This document shows positions 2,690 to 19,762 of a stretch of DNA of 64,000 nucleotides, piece by piece; positions within the stretch are counted from its first letter, which is position 1; every line of letters starts with the position of its first letter. This stretch comes from Minisyncoccota bacterium (GTDB lineage Bacteria; Patescibacteriota; Minisyncoccia; Phycocordibacterales; UBA918), in NCBI GenBank assembly GCA_017992505.1, contig JAGOON010000001.1, positions 2,532 through 66,531 on the forward strand, read 5' to 3'. The position numbers were made by a program, and so were the translations under genes. A model generated the notes under the pieces. The model was not told where the DNA came from. It saw only the letters and a list, made by a program, of their open reading frames with translations, and did not search any database.

Positions 2690-3929
2690 GGTTTGGGTCG
2701 GCCATTACCTCTTCCACAATTCTTTCCGCACGAATCCCTTGCGATGCTTTTACTAAAACCACATCTCCATACTGCAAAAGTGCCTGGAGTTCTCTCCCTG
2801 CCTGTGCACTGTCGTCATACTGGAGGATATTATCCTCAGGCATACCCATATTGAGCGCGCCTTCGGCTATCTTGCGAGCGCGGACACCAACAGTGAGGAG
2901 CATATCTGCGGAACGTGCTACCAGGGCACCAATTTTCTCATGCTCCTCTGAAGAAAAGCGCCCAAGCTCTAGCATGTCACCCAAGACCGCTATCTTACGC
3001 TTGGCGTGTTTCATTTCAGAAAGCGTTTGCAGTGCAAGCTCGCACGCAGTCGGTGAAGAGTTGTATGTGTCATCAATGATCATAGTGGACTTAATTCCTG
3101 GAATAAGTCGCGCTCGACCGTTTGGTGTTCGTAAATCCTTGAGTGAAGTCACTGCTTCTTCAAGTGAAATACCGAGCACATCAGCAACCGCAACTGCGGC
3201 TGCGCATGCGTATGCATGCTGAGTACCAACCGTTCCAGAAATTTGAAGTGGAATGGACTCTCCTGCGTGTGTAATAGTGCACTGCATTCCGACCGCGACA
3301 TCATCGGAATAAATAACCGCATCATCCGTCGCCATGTAGTCGGTTTCAATGTAGCGACTGAACCCAAGCGAGCGCTGCAAGACGTCTCCCAACTGTTGTT
3401 GTATGAGCATATCATCATGATTGTATACAAGTGTTCCATCAACTTTCAGCGCCGACACCAATTTCATTTTTTCTGTAATGACTGCTTCTGGGGTTTGAAA
3501 GTATTCAACATGTACTGGAACCGACGGAAGACGAGTGAGCACCACCACATCTGGTCTTATCCAACGAGAGAGTCGTTCCATGTCACCTGGTCTATCAATA
3601 CCCATTTCAAGTACGAGCACAGCTGGATACTCTTTGGAAAAGAACGCAATAAAAAAACCATCGAGGATATTCTTAATCCAAAGGAGTGGATTACCCCAGG
3701 CGTTATGGAGTCCGAGTACAGTGATTGGTACACCAATTTCAGAATTGAAACTTTTTTCACTCTTACGTGCTGAAACGGAATTCTTTATCGCAGAGTAAAT
3801 GGCGTCCTTGGTGGTCGTCTTACCGACATTACCAGTCACGCAGACAATGGTCGGTTTGTGGCGATTGAGAAGCACCTTTGCTTCATAGGAAAGAATTTTT
3901 ACAACAACAGACTTACAAAATGCTTTCAT
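2637..3929 (-). CDS. murF: Mur ligase, MurF-like (UDP-MurNAc-tripeptide--D-Ala-D-Ala ligase) lacking the usual N-terminal domain
   Basis: P-loop VTGNVGKTTTKDAI (GKTTTK is MurF-like) at residue ~33, followed by Mur ligase middle and C domains. Last gene of the dcw cluster, directly after ftsI. Confidence 0.55.
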   Translation of the reverse strand: MKAFCKSVVVKILSYEAKVLLNRHKPTIVCVTGNVGKTTTKDAIYSAIKNSVSARKSEKSFNSEIGVPITVLGLHNAWGNPLLWIKNILDGFFIAFFSKEYPAVLVLEMGIDRPGDMERLSRWIRPDVVVLTRLPSVPVHVEYFQTPEAVITEKMKLVSALKVDGTLVYNHDDMLIQQQLGDVLQRSLGFSRYIETDYMATDDAVIYSDDVAVGMQCTITHAGESIPLQISGTVGTQHAYACAAAVAVADVLGISLEEAVTSLKDLRTPNGRARLIPGIKSTMIIDDTYNSSPTACELALQTLSEMKHAKRKIAVLGDMLELGRFSSEEHEKIGALVARSADMLLTVGVRARKIAEGALNMGMPEDNILQYDDSAQAGRELQALLQYGDVVLVKASQGIRAERIVEEVMADPNHASELLVRQDDEWIIRK

Positions 3930-3932
3930 AGA

Positions 3933-5654
3933 TTATCGATCGGGAGGAATTGAATAATAGTTAATGAGAAACCGCGCAATCTCCATAAATGGGTCGGTAA
4001 GGGTTTCTGACGCGTATTCTACACCCTGTGGCTCAACTGTATACATAAACACGATAAATCGGGGTTCGTAGGCTGGGAAATAGCCAAAAAAGGAGTGTAG
4101 GTACTTGTCCTCATAGTATCCACCACCGTTAGGGTCTGCTATCTGGGCAGTTCCAGTTTTGGCACCAATTGAATAGTGTGGGAGGGCGACATTTCCACCT
4201 CGAAGAGCTTCATCCACAACGACCGTCAACATGCGTGAAATTTCCTCACTGGTAGATTCCTTGAGCACTTGTTTTGATTCCGGGTACTGTATCTTTTCTA
4301 TGGTGCCGTCATCATATTCAATTCTATCGGCGAGGTGTGGAGTTACGAGCCTGCCACCATTTGCCAAAGTTGATAGGGCTCTAATGGTTTCAATTGGCGT
4401 GAGTGCAATACCCTGTCCAAAAGAGGCAGTTGCATACTCGACATCTCGGGGAGATTTTAAGTTTTCGATGAGGCCATGTGCTTCGCCCGGGAGATCAATT
4501 CCGGTTGGTTCTCCGAGACCGTAGTTTATGAAGTAGTCACGGAAGCGTTCCTTGCCCATTTTCGACACAATATACGCTACACCGGTATTGAGTGACTGAT
4601 TGAGCACTTGTTGCATTGGTACTGTTCCGCGTCCTTTCTTATCAAAGTTACAAATTGTGTACGTATTCAAATCAATGCAACCTGGGTCGTAGTAGGTAGT
4701 GCCAGCATTCACAGTGCCAGCATCAAGGCCAGCTGCCATTGTGAGTGTCTTTATAATTGAACCCATTTCATAAACGTCTTCAACAAGCGGGTTTCTGAAC
4801 TGCTCAATAGTGGCGTCTTCACGGGAATTTAAGTCAAAGCTTGGCACCACATTCATCGCGTAAATCGCGCCAGTATTTGGATCCATAATAATCGCGCCAG
4901 TCATTTTACTCTTATACAGGTCGTTGGTTTGTAGAAGCACCGTATCAAGGAGTCGAGACACCGCTGGCTCAAGCGTCGTTACTACATCACCACTACGCTT
5001 TTGTTCACTTTTATCGACAAATTCACCGACATTACTAAAGAGTTCAGCAAAGAAATTAACTGACATCACTTCACGCTTGCGGTAGAGTACTTCGTCGTAT
5101 TGTCGTTCTAGACCAAACTTTCCGCGAAGTTCATTACCATCTTCGTCGGTATATCCCACAAAGCCCACCGAGCGCGCAGCGACAGAACCTCCTGGGTAAT
5201 AGCGCCACTGGTTGCGATATAAAAGCGCCCCTTCAACGTGCATTTTTTCCAGTTCTTCAGCCTGTTCATTGGAAAGTCTATCTTCAAGTTCAACGTAGGT
5301 TCGATTGTTGAGTGATGCACGCTCCACACAGAGGTCGCGTTCAATAGTAACGAAGTTTCTTATCTTTTCACAAAACTCAGACGCATCGACAACATGCTCG
5401 GGATTTACCGCAAGCAAGTATCCTGCCTGAACAGCAGCAGCGGAAAGTTTTTCGTTGTCTTTGGTGGTAAAAAGAATAGAACCACGCGAGTACAAATCAG
5501 ACTTCGTGTGCACATATTGTTTTTCTGCTTTTTCGCTATAGTAATCAGCGCGAGCAATTTGTAAATAATAGAGTCGACTTATCAAAAGCAGACCAATGAC
5601 AGCAACAACGACCGAGAGCAGCCTAATTCGGTTGGTAAGTTGCTGGCGTCGCAT
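3933..5654 (-). CDS. ftsI: Penicillin-binding protein, peptidoglycan D,D-transpeptidase FtsI
   Basis: N-terminal TM, SxxK (GSIIKT), SxN (SFGQG region) and KTGTA motifs. Sits in the dcw cluster after ftsL. Confidence 0.85.
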   Translation of the reverse strand: MRRQQLTNRIRLLSVVVAVIGLLLISRLYYLQIARADYYSEKAEKQYVHTKSDLYSRGSILFTTKDNEKLSAAAVQAGYLLAVNPEHVVDASEFCEKIRNFVTIERDLCVERASLNNRTYVELEDRLSNEQAEELEKMHVEGALLYRNQWRYYPGGSVAARSVGFVGYTDEDGNELRGKFGLERQYDEVLYRKREVMSVNFFAELFSNVGEFVDKSEQKRSGDVVTTLEPAVSRLLDTVLLQTNDLYKSKMTGAIIMDPNTGAIYAMNVVPSFDLNSREDATIEQFRNPLVEDVYEMGSIIKTLTMAAGLDAGTVNAGTTYYDPGCIDLNTYTICNFDKKGRGTVPMQQVLNQSLNTGVAYIVSKMGKERFRDYFINYGLGEPTGIDLPGEAHGLIENLKSPRDVEYATASFGQGIALTPIETIRALSTLANGGRLVTPHLADRIEYDDGTIEKIQYPESKQVLKESTSEEISRMLTVVVDEALRGGNVALPHYSIGAKTGTAQIADPNGGGYYEDKYLHSFFGYFPAYEPRFIVFMYTVEPQGVEYASETLTDPFMEIARFLINYYSIPPDR

Positions 5655-5982: not shown

Positions 5983-6864
5983 CTATAGTTTGGTGATTAC
6001 TCGTAATTTTGCGCTCCGTGCTCGAGGGTTCTGGCTAAGTTCTTCCCTCGTTGGAGCTATCGGTTTTTTGGTTGTTGGGTTGGCAAGACCCGCGTCTTTG
6101 AGAGTGCGGAAGTAGTGCTTTACTACTCTGTCCTCAAGGCTATGAAACGTGATAATGGCCATTCTTCCGCCAGTATCAAGGGCGGTAAAGCCATCTTTGA
6201 GAAACTGTTCGAGTGCTCCGAGCTCGTCGTTCACGGCGATACGGAGCGCTTGGAAGGTCTTGGTCGAAGGATTTACCTTGCGGTAGTGCATGGGTGGAAA
6301 GACTGATTCGATGATAGTGACAAGCTGTCCAGTAGTCTCAATTGGAGCTACTCTACGAGCGGTGACTATCGCCTTTGCTATCTTTCGAGCCATACGCTCC
6401 TCGCCGTATCCGAAGATAATGTCGGCAAGTGAGCTTTCTCCCCACTCATTCACCATGTCGCGAGCGGTGTACTCGTACTGCGAAGGAGCCCCAAAGGTCA
6501 TATGGAGTGGTTCATCATGCATAAAAGAGAATCCCTTTCCCCCTTCTGCAAACTGTTCCATTCTCCAACCTAAGTCGGCCAAGATGGCGTTCACGTTTTT
6601 AATATGTAAAGAACCTAGAATGTCGGTAATGTTCCGAAAATTGTTGTTGACCAAATGAATGGTCGGCTTCGCGTCAGTGAATGTTTTTCCCTCAAAGGCA
6701 GTTTCGTCTGCATCGATGCCGATGTAGGTACCTTCTGTGTTGAGACGTTTGATGATTTCCTTTGCATGTCCTCCTGCGCCAAAAGTTGCATCAACAACTA
6801 TGTCACTCGAACTGGGCGACAAAGCATCCACAGCTTCCTGCTGTAATACGGTAATGTGTTGCAT
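5983..6864 (-). CDS. rsmH: 16S rRNA (cytosine1402-N4)-methyltransferase RsmH (MraW)
   Basis: VDATFGAGGHA SAM-binding motif and a conserved C-terminal region. Follows mraZ. Confidence 0.9.
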   Translation of the reverse strand: MQHITVLQQEAVDALSPSSSDIVVDATFGAGGHAKEIIKRLNTEGTYIGIDADETAFEGKTFTDAKPTIHLVNNNFRNITDILGSLHIKNVNAILADLGWRMEQFAEGGKGFSFMHDEPLHMTFGAPSQYEYTARDMVNEWGESSLADIIFGYGEERMARKIAKAIVTARRVAPIETTGQLVTIIESVFPPMHYRKVNPSTKTFQALRIAVNDELGALEQFLKDGFTALDTGGRMAIITFHSLEDRVVKHYFRTLKDAGLANPTTKKPIAPTREELSQNPRARSAKLRVITKL

Positions 6865-9798: not shown

Positions 9799-10020
9799 AC
9801 GTAATGCTTATCCTAGCGTATACATAACAAAAAAGAAAGGTTCCTTCTGCAGCTCGCTGCCGCCAGATTCAGGTCTAGGAATGGACCTGAATCGTGGCGA
9901 AGCGCCTGCATAAATTCGCAATAGTCGGCTACGCCTCGTTTGCTCATTCAAAAGAAAAGGCCAGAGCTAATGCACTAACCTTTTCTTCTTACCCTGATAC
10001 TTAAAATTGAGAAAGATGTT

Positions 10021-10110
10021 CGGATGCGAGGCGCGGGAGGAAAATTGTGTGAGGCGTACTTAATGTACGGTGAACATAATTTTACCGAACTACAACGAAG
10101 CAGACGGGCG
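10021..10110. repeat. Conserved ~80-nt intergenic element, copy A, immediately 3' of greA. Homologous to 18225-18320
   Basis: About 80% identity to copy B over roughly 75 nt. Shared blocks are GGAGGAAAA, CGTAC-N4/5-GTACG hairpin and TTTTACCGAAC-N-GCAAC-AAGC. Confidence 0.6.
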
Positions 10111-10112
10111 TC

Positions 10113-10580
10113 TTACTCAACTTTTAAGACTTTGTACTTTTGCTTTCCGAGTGGCGTTTCAAATTCAAATTCGTCTCCCTTCTTCTTCCCCATCAATGCT
10201 TCACCGAGCGGTGAAAGGTAAGAGAGCTTGTGCTCGTGGATATTTGCTTCGTCTGAGCCAACGATGGTGTACTCTCGCTTTTCTTTATCCTTGTCTTTTT
10301 GGATTGATACAACTGATCCGAGTCCAACGACGTCACCATGCTTTTCATGTGCGACAATCTTTGCTTCCTTGATAGTCTTTTCGAGGTAGCCAATACGTTC
10401 TTCGATTGCTGCCTGCATATCACGAGCTTCTTGGTACTCGGCATTTTCTGAGAGGTCACCGAGACTTCGAGCGTACTCAAGTGACTCTGCAACTTCCTTT
10501 CGACGAACGGTCTTTAGGTGATCGAGCTCTTTTTTTAATTCTTCGAATTTCTCTGGGGTCAGAAACGCTTGTGTATCCAT
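10113..10580 (-). CDS. greA: Transcription elongation factor GreA
   Basis: N-terminal coiled coil plus C-terminal FKBP-like domain (GDLSENAEY; TIVGSDEAN; SPLGEALMGKKKGDE). Confidence 0.9.
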   Translation of the reverse strand: MDTQAFLTPEKFEELKKELDHLKTVRRKEVAESLEYARSLGDLSENAEYQEARDMQAAIEERIGYLEKTIKEAKIVAHEKHGDVVGLGSVVSIQKDKDKEKREYTIVGSDEANIHEHKLSYLSPLGEALMGKKKGDEFEFETPLGKQKYKVLKVE

Positions 10581-17550: not shown

Positions 17551-18168
17551 TTAAGCGGGTAATACCAACGCTAGGTGTTCGAGTAAAAACTTATTTGAAG
17601 CACCACGAGTAAGGAGGAGTCTCGTCACATACTCTAGTTCAGACAGTGTTTCCTTGGGAAGTGTAATGGCGGACTCTTTGAGATACTGTATGAGGCCCTT
17701 TTTGATAGCGTTTTGCCAGATATGATCCTTTTGCTTGGTGGCTTGCTCAATCTGCGCCATGCGCTCACCATAGGAAGCATCTTTAAAAGAAGCAAACGCC
17801 TTGTAGTCAACAATCTCACTAACAGTCCCTACTCGTTCAAAACGAGACTCAAGTGTGGGTAAAAAGCTATATCCTTCTGGGATAATGAATACGAACATTG
17901 TCGAGCGTGGTGGTTCTTCGATAATCTTAAGCAACGCTTGCTGCGCCTCTTCAGTCACAAACTCAGTCGCGACAATAATCGTGCGCGTGTCGGTTTCTCC
18001 ATCTGGCCTGCGGTGGGCGTTTATGATGAGTGTGCGGACATCATCAATACCAAACTGCGCAGTTCGATACTGATCAGTTACGGGCACCGCACTATATGCA
18101 TCAATTGTCGCAATGAGTGGAGCTTCTGAAGAAAACAAAACAGCATGATGGGAATTCATGCCGTTCAT
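17551..18168 (-). CDS. holB: DNA polymerase III delta'-like (HolB-like) short clamp-loader subunit
   Basis: LLKIIEEPP motif (the LLKTLEEPP box of clamp-loader subunits). 205 aa, degenerate P-loop. Confidence 0.55.
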   Translation of the reverse strand: MNGMNSHHAVLFSSEAPLIATIDAYSAVPVTDQYRTAQFGIDDVRTLIINAHRRPDGETDTRTIIVATEFVTEEAQQALLKIIEEPPRSTMFVFIIPEGYSFLPTLESRFERVGTVSEIVDYKAFASFKDASYGERMAQIEQATKQKDHIWQNAIKKGLIQYLKESAITLPKETLSELEYVTRLLLTRGASNKFLLEHLALVLPA

Positions 18169-18173
18169 TATGG

Positions 18174-18179
18174 ATTGTA
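18174..18179 (-). promoter_or_regulatory. -10 hexamer TACAAT 5 nt upstream of the holB-like ATG (leaderless-type promoter). TTGACA lies 11 nt further upstream
   Basis: Minus strand reads TTGACAcatataccagaTACAATccataATG. Confidence 0.45.
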
Positions 18180-18224
18180 TCTGGTATATGTGTCAAAGGG
18201 CTCACAAATTAGAGCGTCACAAAA

Positions 18225-18320
18225 TAATCTGAGGCGAGGCGCTGGAGGAAAACAGATTGAGACGTACCTATGTACGGCGAAATTTTTTTTACCGAACAGC
18301 AACAAAGCTTCAGGTTATTT
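18225..18320. repeat. Conserved ~80-nt intergenic element, copy B, immediately 3' of the Pro-rich gene. Homologous to 10021-10110
   Basis: See copy A. On the minus strand it aligns GCTTTGTTGCTGTTCGGTAAAAAAAATTTCGCCGTACATAGGTACGTCTCAATCTGTTTTCCTCCAGCGCCTCGC with copy A. Confidence 0.6.
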
Positions 18321-18328
18321 TTGGCGTT

Positions 18329-19762
18329 CTAACCTTTTTGCAGATCGAGGATATGGCGTATAACTCGTCGCAGATAGTGTTCGAAGGTTTCGCCCTGTTG
18401 ATAGATTATACCTTGCTCGTAGCGCCATCCGTTCATATAGTCAGTAATACTTTGTTTGATTTCCTGCGTCGCCCCCTCAAAACGCCCAGCAAGTAGGAGT
18501 GGGATATGAAGCGGTGCAATCTTTTTAAAGAGTGGGTGCTCGTGACCTTTAGGACCAGTACCGAAAAGACCGCTCTTTTTAAATATAGACCATTCTGAGA
18601 GTAACTGTTCAAGACCATCATCAACTTCCTTATTAAAAAGTGGATCACCTGACGAAATCGCGGAAGCTTTGAGGGATGCAGTCGCCTGCAAATCTTCGAG
18701 AGTATGTGGCTTCTTTAAATCTGCAAGTGACGCGAAGCCAGCTGGTTGAGCTGGCGCTGGGGCCGGAGCAGCAGACGGAGCTGCTTCTTCATGCGACCAT
18801 GAAGGAGACGCCACTGTTGCAGGTTGTGGGAGAATATCTTTTTCACTTGGTTTATAGGCAGGAACTGGCTGAAACGGCTCACCAGTAGGAACGGCAGCGA
18901 CTCTATGCACTGGTTCGGCTTGAAGAACTGGAGTTTCTTCAACTGATATATTTACTTCCTGTACTGCTGGGGTGGTTTTTGGGCTCACAGCGACTACATT
19001 CACTGTACCGCCACTCGTCTGGTGGGTTTCAAGGGCCTTGAGTACCGATGCGTACGACTCCTCAAGACGCTTCATTGCTGAGGCAGCCGAAGAACCGCTA
19101 TTGAGTTTCTTCATCGCATCGAGGAGTGCTCCCATGTATTCACGCCCAACTTCATTATCAATATCGACAAGATTCACTGGGTTACCGACTTTTTCGTTTA
19201 CAGAGGCTTTAATCTCTCGAATACGAGTAAGGTACTCTCCAACATCAGCTACTGGAGTCACTGGCTCTGGAACAGCCGATACTACAGGAACTGGTTCAGG
19301 CACCTGTTGTGGAATTGGTGCCTCGACCACTGGTGCAGGCTGAACAACGGGCTCTGGGGTGGCTTGGTGTGGTGTCCAAGCTGGCTGTGCACTAAAGACT
19401 GGAATCGAAGAAACGGGCACCTGTTGTGGCGCACTTTGTGCTACGGGTGCAGGCGTGAAAGTCGGAGCAACACGAAACTTTCCGATAGTCGGTTGAGGTG
19501 GAAGTGTTTGGGTTGATTGAGGACTAATTTTTCTTGGTGCTGGGGTTACCCGATATGCGACTATTTTTTGTTCAAGCGCGAGACGAACAGTCTGATCCTT
19601 TCCGCCGTTTGTATACAAAAAAACCAAGTCACGGAGTTCGCTTTTTTGTGGAGCCCCAATTTCACTTGTTCGGATAGACGCAAGTAAATGCATCACTCCT
19701 GCTTGTGACTCAAAATCAAAGACGGCGTTCCCATTTATGGGCAAAGAACCAACACTCACCAT
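18329..19762 (-). CDS. Hypothetical Pro/Ala/Val/Gln-rich protein (third gene of the ATPase module)
   Basis: 477 aa. Three predicted globular segments separated by PxxP/PAPV low-complexity linkers. No signal peptide or TM seen. Confidence 0.5.
   Translation of the reverse strand: MVSVGSLPINGNAVFDFESQAGVMHLLASIRTSEIGAPQKSELRDLVFLYTNGGKDQTVRLALEQKIVAYRVTPAPRKISPQSTQTLPPQPTIGKFRVAPTFTPAPVAQSAPQQVPVSSIPVFSAQPAWTPHQATPEPVVQPAPVVEAPIPQQVPEPVPVVSAVPEPVTPVADVGEYLTRIREIKASVNEKVGNPVNLVDIDNEVGREYMGALLDAMKKLNSGSSAASAMKRLEESYASVLKALETHQTSGGTVNVVAVSPKTTPAVQEVNISVEETPVLQAEPVHRVAAVPTGEPFQPVPAYKPSEKDILPQPATVASPSWSHEEAAPSAAPAPAPAQPAGFASLADLKKPHTLEDLQATASLKASAISSGDPLFNKEVDDGLEQLLSEWSIFKKSGLFGTGPKGHEHPLFKKIAPLHIPLLLAGRFEGATQEIKQSITDYMNGWRYEQGIIYQQGETFEHYLRRVIRHILDLQKG

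Follow-up and report, generated by a model that had tools for sequence, protein, structure and literature searches.

What kind of element occurs in similar form directly behind the stop codons of two different genes? This question is raised by a stretch of 64,000 nt from a Minisyncoccota bacterium, referred to here as the window. One of the two genes, on the minus strand at 10113..10580, encodes GreA, with both GreA/GreB Pfam domains present in the product. The other, the minus-strand ORF 18329-19762, encodes a Pro-rich protein of 477 aa that has no Pfam match. Downstream of the spacers lie the genes for a class-I lysyl-tRNA synthetase (copy A) and a DNA polymerase III delta'-like protein (copy B). 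An initial annotation had quoted one string from each spacer and described them as paralogous non-coding copies with about 80% identity over some 75 nt and a likely function. Both strings are present exactly on the minus strand (copy A 10101..10026, copy B 18308..18234) and are identical at 60 of 76 positions with one 1-nt gap, and the view that they are paralogous, functional-looking conserved copies directly after stop codons is supported. The conserved core begins 8 nt past the greA stop in copy A and 17 nt past the stop of the Pro-rich ORF in copy B. An nhmmer profile made from 61 family members, all from other organisms, matches the two copies at E-values of 2.6e-25 and 1.3e-20 and gives no third match in the window at E<=10. 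Since a profile from other organisms alone finds both sites and nothing else in the window, the resemblance of A and B is not due to chance. A covariance model run with filters off assigns them 102 and 98 bits, the next best match in the window scoring 13 bits, and a search with nhmmer, blastn-short and the unfiltered covariance model together found no window copies beyond A and B. The 90-nt unit delimited at first is too short, since the full hairpins, which we call rods, extend beyond it on both sides (Table 1). On the plus strand, the RNA minimum free energy (MFE) is -51.2 kcal/mol for rod A (z -8.9) and -51.7 kcal/mol for rod B (z -8.9), compared to -27.8 (z -3.7) and -28.2 kcal/mol (z -3.2), respectively, on the minus strand.

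Table 1. Positions of the two rods and of adjoining features in the window.
Feature	Position	Strand	Basis or context
Rod A, complete 129-nt hairpin	10000..10128	+	antisense to greA; RNA MFE and boundaries
Rod A conserved core, helices P1-P4, GA-rich internal loops; includes the earlier 76-nt string (10026-10101)	10020..10105	+	nhmmer and covariance-model matches, covarying consensus structure
greA stop codon and last 13 coding nt	10113..10128 (stop 10113-10115)	-	complement is the 3' arm of the rod A outer stem
Terminator-like hairpin for greA (GAAAAGG...CCTTTTC, then TTTTG)	9950..9988	-	beyond rod A; sequence reading and terminator scan
Rod B, complete 124-nt hairpin	18209..18332	+	antisense to Pro-rich ORF 18329-19762; RNA MFE
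Rod B conserved core; includes the earlier 75-nt string (18234-18308)	18228..18312	+	nhmmer and covariance-model matches
Pro-rich ORF stop codon TAG	18329..18331	-	complement base-paired at the base of rod B
Sigma-70-like holB promoter, TTGACA-18-CATAAT	18167..18196	-	13 nt past the distal base of rod B; lies outside the rod

We show here that both window sites belong to a widespread family of rod-shaped hairpins in Patescibacteria of the Paceibacteria/Kaiserbacteria type. Scanning one genome per species for the pattern GGAGGAAAA-N28-42-TTTTACCGAAC returned 53 stretches, among which true homologues occupy about 21 loci, nearly all of them in genomes labelled as Patescibacteria groups. The same GGAGGAAAA/TTTTACCGAAC scan of metagenomes gave 53 more stretches. 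The covariance model R1 collected 63 copies (56 distinct) from 50 sources, comprising Patescibacteria genomes and metagenomes. Several diverged R1 copies do not match the scan pattern, hence the family is broader than the pattern; in such members GGAGGAAAA and TTTTACCGAAC are replaced by other complementary sequences, and the apparent invariance of the two motifs is partly an artefact of having used them for the search. Some contigs (L109, L065, L061, L021, L036 and L008) carry two to four copies within a few kb, with up to four in 3 kb, and tandem duplicates as well as relic units of a gene end plus a rod are present. A weak model match of 30 bits lies in a stretch without long ORFs (L026:3728-3841) and is not counted as evidence. 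A phage origin was rejected: viral contigs were scanned three times, and the only matches to appear were chance half-matches, which the covariance model did not accept. With Rfam 15, the whole window yields only a tRNA at the gathering threshold, the region 9800-10200 has no rod match above 18.5 bits at E<=10, and nine other rod-bearing loci show scattered sub-threshold matches to generic hairpins with no recurring family. A search of the full-text literature found no description of such an element in Patescibacteria/CPR.

The family fold is a single long hairpin with a median full length of 127 nt and a core of four covarying helices. In the core alignment, which was fitted to the covariance model and therefore favours structure, 96.5% of cells form standard pairs and changes on both sides are seen in 25 of 28 pairs; an independent MAFFT alignment still shows 21 of the 28 pairs to be compensatory. 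The covariation score is 0.626, compared to 0.196 for column shuffles (0 of 500 reach 0.626) and at most 0.105 when the partners are slid by 1-3 columns. RNAalifold agrees with the consensus structure and with the covariation. Thus, the further copies and the covariation that the initial annotation had suggested looking for are both abundant (63 copies; 25/28 compensatory pairs). The helices are separated by internal loops rich in purines, which show almost no variation in the collected copies (GA/GA, GAGG(C)/AAC-RAAG, GA/GAA and GA(G)/YGA), and the conserved unpaired bases are almost all purines on the strand that folds. The apical loop varies in length and sequence. The apical hairpin CGTAC...GTACG that had been read from the two copies is real; it corresponds to helix P4 and covaries across the family. 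A second proposed hairpin, CGGT...(A/G)CCG, finds no support, since its bases are taken up by other helices, with GGUAAAAU pairing with AUUUUCC, and the rest of the family does not conserve the pairing. Coding explanations were considered and rejected. A protein-coding sequence or leader peptide is incompatible with an apical loop of variable length, helices that covary freely and the lack of a fixed frame relative to the stop. The reading of GGAGGAAAA as a Shine-Dalgarno sequence followed by a small ORF fails because in many members no start codon is found at the next position and no frame is conserved, and the motif itself is missing in the diverged members L008:2505, L052:1418 and L049:5496. 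Likewise, a peptide made by read-through of the stop is rejected, because the distances from stop to rod follow no consistent frame.

The initial annotation had read the element on the gene strand, that is, the minus strand. The compensatory changes point the other way: the fold under selection is that of the plus strand, antisense to greA and to the Pro-rich gene. Written in plus orientation, the core pairs of the family contain 99 G-U against 11 A-C combinations (p = 7e-19). For the mRNA strand this means A-C mismatches in 6% of the cells and G-U pairs in only 0.7%. The MFE stems contain 108 G-U versus 3 A-C, and the outer arms, compared in a strand-neutral DNA alignment, go in the same direction, with 30 G-U against 2 A-C on the fold strand. 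The MFE is lower on the fold strand in 42 of 42 copies (mean -60.1 versus -44.4 kcal/mol), and an uninterrupted duplex of 16 bp is reached by 14 of 42 rods on the fold strand compared to 4 of 42 on the sense strand. When one arm of a palindrome undergoes a transition, G-T results on one strand and A-C on the other, so that selection on one strand is needed to account for these counts. A cruciform or another double-stranded site is rejected on the same grounds, as a structure involving both strands predicts no asymmetry and 99:11 is observed; a double-stranded protein-binding site, one of the candidates proposed earlier, does not account for strand-specific compensatory changes. Deamination bias (C-to-T on the leading or non-template strand) would push the counts opposite to the asymmetry observed. 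GC skew is negative on the plus strand across the whole window, which makes the minus (gene) strand the likely leading strand. Selected RNA structures typically tolerate G-U pairs and conserve unpaired purines. Single-stranded DNA also tolerates G-T wobble and sheared G-A pairs, and in the window copies the plus strand is also the better folder under DNA parameters; hence RNA and DNA cannot be separated by sequence alone.

The core is extended in each case by an outer stem of about 17-30 bp that is specific for the locus. One of its arms is complementary to the end of the upstream gene, covering the stop codon and the last codons. In 31 of 45 copies all three bases of the stop codon are paired. 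The outermost pair is located within the coding sequence, at a median depth of 7 nt, and the stem of rod A reaches 13 nt into greA. SSB genes at orthologous loci end in different last codons and stops (CCTTTCTAA, CCCTTTTAG, CCATTCTAG and others), and these differences are matched in the distal arm. Because the distal arm changes along with the differences in the SSB gene end, the pairing is maintained and not accidentally inherited. The orthologous KH and SSB loci show compensatory change in situ, and where rods persist, the compensatory changes include some that face synonymous and stop-codon differences. Template-switch "palindrome correction" during replication, which a preprint reportedly describes as a general mechanism for hairpins, could be the source of the outer stems, with selection then keeping the G-U-compatible versions.

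The position of the rods follows a simple rule. In one count, 19 of 25 copies have the stop of a convergent ORF no more than 25 nt from the core; in another, 32 of 38 copies have it within about 24 nt, the exceptions being mostly second copies of tandem pairs, copies at contig edges or copies beside small ORFs. Polarity is fixed, in that every copy with a callable neighbour gene is antisense to the gene whose stop it abuts. Contig L109 has four rods, located on both strands and each antisense to its own gene, with a single terminator between two of them. As the rods on both strands follow their own genes there, polarity appears to be set by the gene, and this one clear locus argues against a polarity determined by replication. 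The upstream genes encode SSB, bS18 (rpsR), a KhpA-type KH protein, EF-Tu, EF-P, LepA, GyrA, GyrB, PBP2, Ndk, a class-I aldolase, RseP, a PPIase, a HAD phosphatase, GreA and the Pro-rich protein, and a rod with this structured core follows at least 15 different genes. These are core genes, presumably with high expression. The rod is a strand-specific, structurally selected hairpin module that is fixed at the 3' boundary of core genes.

The two window sites are not shared by close relatives. GreA homologues with 86-96% identity come from metagenome-assembled genomes labelled Patescibacteria, Paceibacteria, Parcubacteria or Kaiserbacteria, and the surroundings of greA were compared in three relatives, one of which has a GreA that is 94% identical. 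The gene orders PBP2-greA-lysS/lysK and X-holB-frr are the same in all three, and the rod is absent from the greA-lysS and X-holB spacers of each. In the relatives lacking the rod a canonical terminator follows directly after greA, and the gap between X and holB is only about 10-20 nt. The terminator-like hairpin beyond rod A aligns with the greA terminator of two rod-less relatives (L001 and L004). Since the orthologous spacers are empty, the rod is a lineage-specific gain at both window sites. Its presence or absence also varies at orthologous sites between lineages.

Rods sit either between the stop codon and the terminator of the gene or between cistrons, as is seen on contig L065 with the order ssb-rod-rpsR-rod-terminator. 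A canonical G+C-rich hairpin with a T run is found on the gene strand within about 120 nt beyond the rod in 25 of 52 copies, a count in which the match for window copy B is false because it lies inside holB. This terminator is often only 16-35 nt away from the rod and often has an A run on its other side. Because the terminator lies beyond the rod and rods occur between cistrons, the DNA of the rod should be transcribed within the 3' UTR or the intercistronic spacer of the mRNA. The rod itself does not resemble an intrinsic terminator. On the fold strand, 3.3 T per 10 nt follow the rod compared to 2.9 in controls, on the gene strand no T run directly follows the rod in the sequences read, and a terminator scan of the window called no terminator at rod A or rod B. 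An intrinsic (Rho-independent) terminator in either direction is therefore rejected, given that there is no U tract and that the real terminator is separate in 25/52 copies. In consensus scans, 23 of 51 copies have a promoter-like match on the fold strand and 21 of 51 have one on the other strand, at scattered positions. A promoter cassette is thus rejected as well, since the matches are neither enriched on one strand nor fixed in position and the holB promoter is a separate sequence (Table 1). Hence, the idea of a terminator/promoter cassette feeding lysK and holB had to be abandoned: neither strand has a U tract, and a separate terminator or promoter lies beyond the rod. The proposal of a small RNA or 3'-UTR element holds in part. 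The location in 3'-UTR DNA stands, but the mRNA strand is not the one selected for structure, and no promoter or terminator of its own was found for a small RNA.

Which molecule does the selected strand act as? We tentatively favour an RNA from the antisense strand acting in cis, a possibility to which we give clearly less than even confidence. It is suggested by the purine-rich loops and the G-U pattern, by a polarity that follows the gene, and by a stem that closes at the gene boundary. Low-level antisense transcripts would arise by read-through or by spurious transcription back towards the gene. Such an RNA would fold during its synthesis, giving a rod of very high stability whose closing stem would become complete at the moment when the polymerase passes over the stop codon. 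The long outer duplex and the GA loops might then be bound or cut by a factor, for example RNase III or a loop-binding protein, so that antisense transcripts would be halted or degraded early enough to prevent interference with a strongly expressed gene. The mRNA strand gives a much weaker hairpin, and sense expression would be spared. On contig L109, a transcript passing the shared terminator would meet the rod of the next gene in the orientation in which it folds. However, several observations speak against an antisense RNA. A scan of 51 copies gave no conserved promoter on the fold strand, and at many loci a terminator flanked by A and T tracts is located only 16-35 nt upstream in the direction of the fold. 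With a terminator that close, there is no room for a promoter and incoming antisense transcripts should stop. Since no U tract follows on the fold strand, the rod would not be a canonical intrinsic terminator for antisense RNA either. A wider, and in our view unlikely, proposal is that the rods form a new class of cis-element, a strand-specific "stop-codon clamp" that carries the complement of the gene end in its closing stem and works only opposite the mRNA. One possibility is a factor-dependent gatekeeper, by which antisense transcripts would be terminated or degraded exactly where a highly expressed gene ends; another is a hairpin in the template DNA strand where replication meets heavy transcription, for example a site for re-priming or restart past the gene.

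The main rival to the antisense RNA is a hairpin in single-stranded DNA of the bottom strand, comparable to attC or REP/RAYT elements, that would be selfish or linked to recombination or replication and whose polarity would reflect insertion or tolerance. We consider it rather unlikely. It would explain why the fold is on the ORF-complementary strand at or over the stop codon, which is the geometry of attC, and why the rods are patchy at orthologous sites and present in several copies per genome (up to 4 in 3 kb). Tandem duplicates and relic units of gene end and rod suggest turnover at the DNA level, no promoter or terminator of an RNA gene was found, and the plus strand folds better with DNA parameters. 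On the other side, there are no conserved terminal inverted repeats, the outer arms differing between A and B and between loci, and no consistent target-site duplication. RYYYAAC/GTTRRRY boxes, a cassette array and an adjoining integrase or transposase are likewise missing, and the neighbours are syntenic housekeeping genes. The fold strand in the window is the leading-strand template, which is least exposed as single-stranded DNA, and at L109 polarity tracks the gene and not replication. Furthermore, orthologous copies persist across species with compensatory change in situ, which is unexpected for immobile selfish copies, and conserved purine-rich loops are more typical of RNA.

The remaining alternatives do less well. 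Genes for small RNAs acting in trans, as a protein sponge or a guide, might be tolerated only beside gene ends in compact genomes. A multi-copy rod with strongly conserved loops and free helices does resemble protein-binding RNAs, and a promoter-like match (9 of 12) overlaps the 5' arm of copy B, but no conserved promoter or terminator was found in consensus scans, at many loci a promoter would not fit between the rod and the neighbouring terminator, and neither the strict polarity nor the co-evolution of outer stem and stop codon is explained, so that we judge this quite improbable. There is similarly little chance that the rod works as a sense-strand 3'-UTR hairpin, which would protect from exonucleases, set differential expression within an operon or couple translation termination to a downstream event. 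A REP element at malE-malF sets differential expression within its operon. The rod does lie in transcribed DNA (between stop and terminator, or in the ssb-rpsR spacer), the hairpin of the mRNA strand retains a fair stability (mean -44 kcal/mol), and the stop codon is part of a stem that a terminating ribosome would melt. However, 6% A-C against 0.7% G-U on the mRNA strand is the reverse of the pattern known for selected RNA, the outer arms show the same reversal, the conserved loops are pyrimidine-rich on that strand, and the sense fold is the weaker one in all 42 copies. That the rods are ordinary features or a product of chance, be it an intrinsic terminator, a promoter/UP-element cassette or a double-stranded protein-binding site, is extremely improbable. 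They are intergenic, with a terminator near copy A and a promoter near copy B, but profile E-values of 1e-20 to 1e-25, a covariation that is strand-specific and the missing U tract argue against such an assignment, the true terminator and promoter are separate sequences, and relatives keep the terminator without the rod.

The rods are thus an unannotated, widespread and strongly covarying interspersed intergenic hairpin element with an unusual polarity rule and no Rfam family. There is a meaningful chance that they represent a new kind of cis-element. To our knowledge, almost no regulatory RNAs have been described in Patescibacteria. The tiny and tightly packed genomes of these bacteria keep a structured element of about 125 nt behind ssb, rpsR, tuf, efp, lepA, gyrA/B and greA, and for a 3'-UTR element it is the "wrong" strand that is under selection. 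If the active molecule is RNA, the rods would point to an unrecognised policing of antisense transcription at gene ends; if it is DNA, they would be an attC-like bottom-strand structure outside integrons. In either case, they offer a testable motif for uncultured bacteria, with a covariance model, 63 examples and a clear position rule.

Several known systems share part of these properties. Interspersed intergenic hairpins are known as ERIC/IRU (about 127 bp for ERIC), BOX, Correia (CREE) and bcr1-type repeats. Like these, rods are imperfect palindromes of about 100-150 bp that occur in multiple copies in transcribed intergenic or 3'-UTR DNA, are patchy between related genomes and are predicted to form one long hairpin. 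The terminal inverted repeats of these known elements are conserved, a duplicated target is often present (TA for Correia), and both orientations occur. In contrast, the outer arms of the rods are locus-specific and derived from the end of the neighbouring gene, their polarity is fixed, and selection acts opposite the mRNA. A MITE of the Correia or ERIC type is rejected because there are no shared terminal inverted repeats, the outer arms of A and B being unrelated to each other and complementary to the local gene end. The bases of 42 hairpins showed no recurrent direct repeat that could be a target-site duplication (mostly 2-4 nt, the few longer ones sharing no sequence), and insertion in either orientation, as in MITEs, was not seen among the copies with a callable neighbour gene.

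A second group is formed by elements for which folding of one DNA strand is known or has been proposed. attC sites are imperfect hairpins of 57-141 nt at or over the stop of the preceding ORF; they fold from the bottom strand, are conserved more in structure than in sequence and, in chromosomal integrons, have their folding strand on the leading-strand template. Rods share the bottom-strand hairpin directly 3' of, or overlapping, the ORF stop, and in the window the fold strand is on the leading-strand template. However, their internal loops are strongly conserved in sequence and the preceding genes are syntenic core genes (greA, ssb, tuf). The attC core sites R'' (RYYYAAC) and R' (GTTRRRY) are not seen in the outer-arm alignment, as judged by reading the alignment and not by an attC model, and beside the window rods there is neither a cassette array nor an integrase; the flanking lysK, greA, PBP2 and holB are ordered as in the relatives lacking the rod. 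Without core sites, cassettes or a nearby integrase, an attC site is rejected. REP/BIME elements with their RAYT transposases are extragenic palindromes after stop codons and inside operons, for which a role in mRNA stability and strand-specific DNA folding have been proposed, and rods are extragenic palindromes in the same kinds of places. REPs are 20-40 bp long and marked by a GTAG or CGTC tag, and their copies number in the hundreds and often form inverted pairs, whereas rods have about 125 nt, show no GTAG/CGTC tag in the alignment and are present in only two copies in 64 kb. The wrong size and the lack of a conserved tag rule out a REP element.

A parallel to an antisense RNA acting in cis is given by cis-antisense RNAs to mRNA 3' ends such as GadY/gadX, in which an RNA encoded opposite the 3' end of a gene acts in cis on the transcript of that gene with involvement of RNase III. 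The antisense RNA that we propose for the rods would resemble GadY in being encoded opposite a gene 3' end and acting in cis. GadY has its own promoter and terminator at a single locus, whereas neither signal was detected for the rods and the rod core recurs behind at least 15 genes.

Rods, the hairpin elements of about 125 nt at gene ends, also occur in tandem, and the pairs sit behind ssb or gyrB at three other loci (see table). In L021, a degenerate 3' end of ssb lies within the flank of the second copy, and the pair looks as if gene end and rod had been duplicated as one unit. In L006, the real stop codon of the KH-protein gene (6121-6123) is followed by an insert of about 130 nt (6124-6255) and then by a vestigial copy of the end of this gene, TGAGAATCTAAATTGG, which continues to make the outer stem of the rod. 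This insert holds a short rod-like hairpin (GCGAGGC..GGAGG..TGAG..CGAAGCG..ACC) in sense orientation, opposite to that of the rod, and the covariance model built from rod copies gave it no score.

Coordinates of tandem rods, the holB promoter and the second conserved motif
Feature	Location	Strand
Tandem rod pair	L021:1833-1947 + 2230-2344	
Tandem rod pair	L036:5753-5868 + 6185-6300	
Tandem rod pair	L061:637-752 + 770-885	
holB promoter, near-consensus TTGACA-18-CATAAT	window 18167-18196	-
Second conserved non-coding motif, between greA terminator and lysK	window 9832-9950	-
Second-motif homologue	L065:1076-1118	-
Second-motif homologue	L075:1019-1061	-
Second-motif homologue	L026:2232-2273	+
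Second-motif homologue	L084:3556-3600	-

The second motif is composed of GAATGAGCAAACGAG-GCGTAGC-CGACTATTGCGAATTTA, followed by a hairpin that varies. Its homologues precede other genes (rpsR; the gene after khpA) and read in the sense direction, and the small 5' hairpin shows some covariation among only four sequences. The motif had no match in Rfam and is missing from the corresponding spacer of L001, a relative without the rod.

In L026, the roughly 2 kb that follow trmD (3400-5400) lack any long ORF and might hold a gene for rRNA or another large RNA; this region includes a weak match to the rod model (30 bits), which was left out of the evidence. Of the 16 bins of 4 kb in the window (1-64000), 15 show negative GC skew on the plus strand regardless of gene orientation, and therefore the minus strand is probably the leading strand throughout.

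Two junctions can be compared with those of relatives that lack the rod. The holB gene of the window is served by a promoter of its own within a 160-nt spacer, and in the relatives only about 10-20 nt lie between the upstream gene and holB (L004:2350-2370, L005:1600-1625). Rod B, the copy in front of holB, and this promoter appear to have interrupted a junction within an operon. In the same relatives the greA terminator (L004:10472-10535, L005:9716-9780) forms a perfect palindrome, about 30 bp long, with a G+C-rich centre inside an A/T-rich outer part; its first base is the last one of the stop codon. It may be generally true of these genomes that palindromes lie tight against stop codons.
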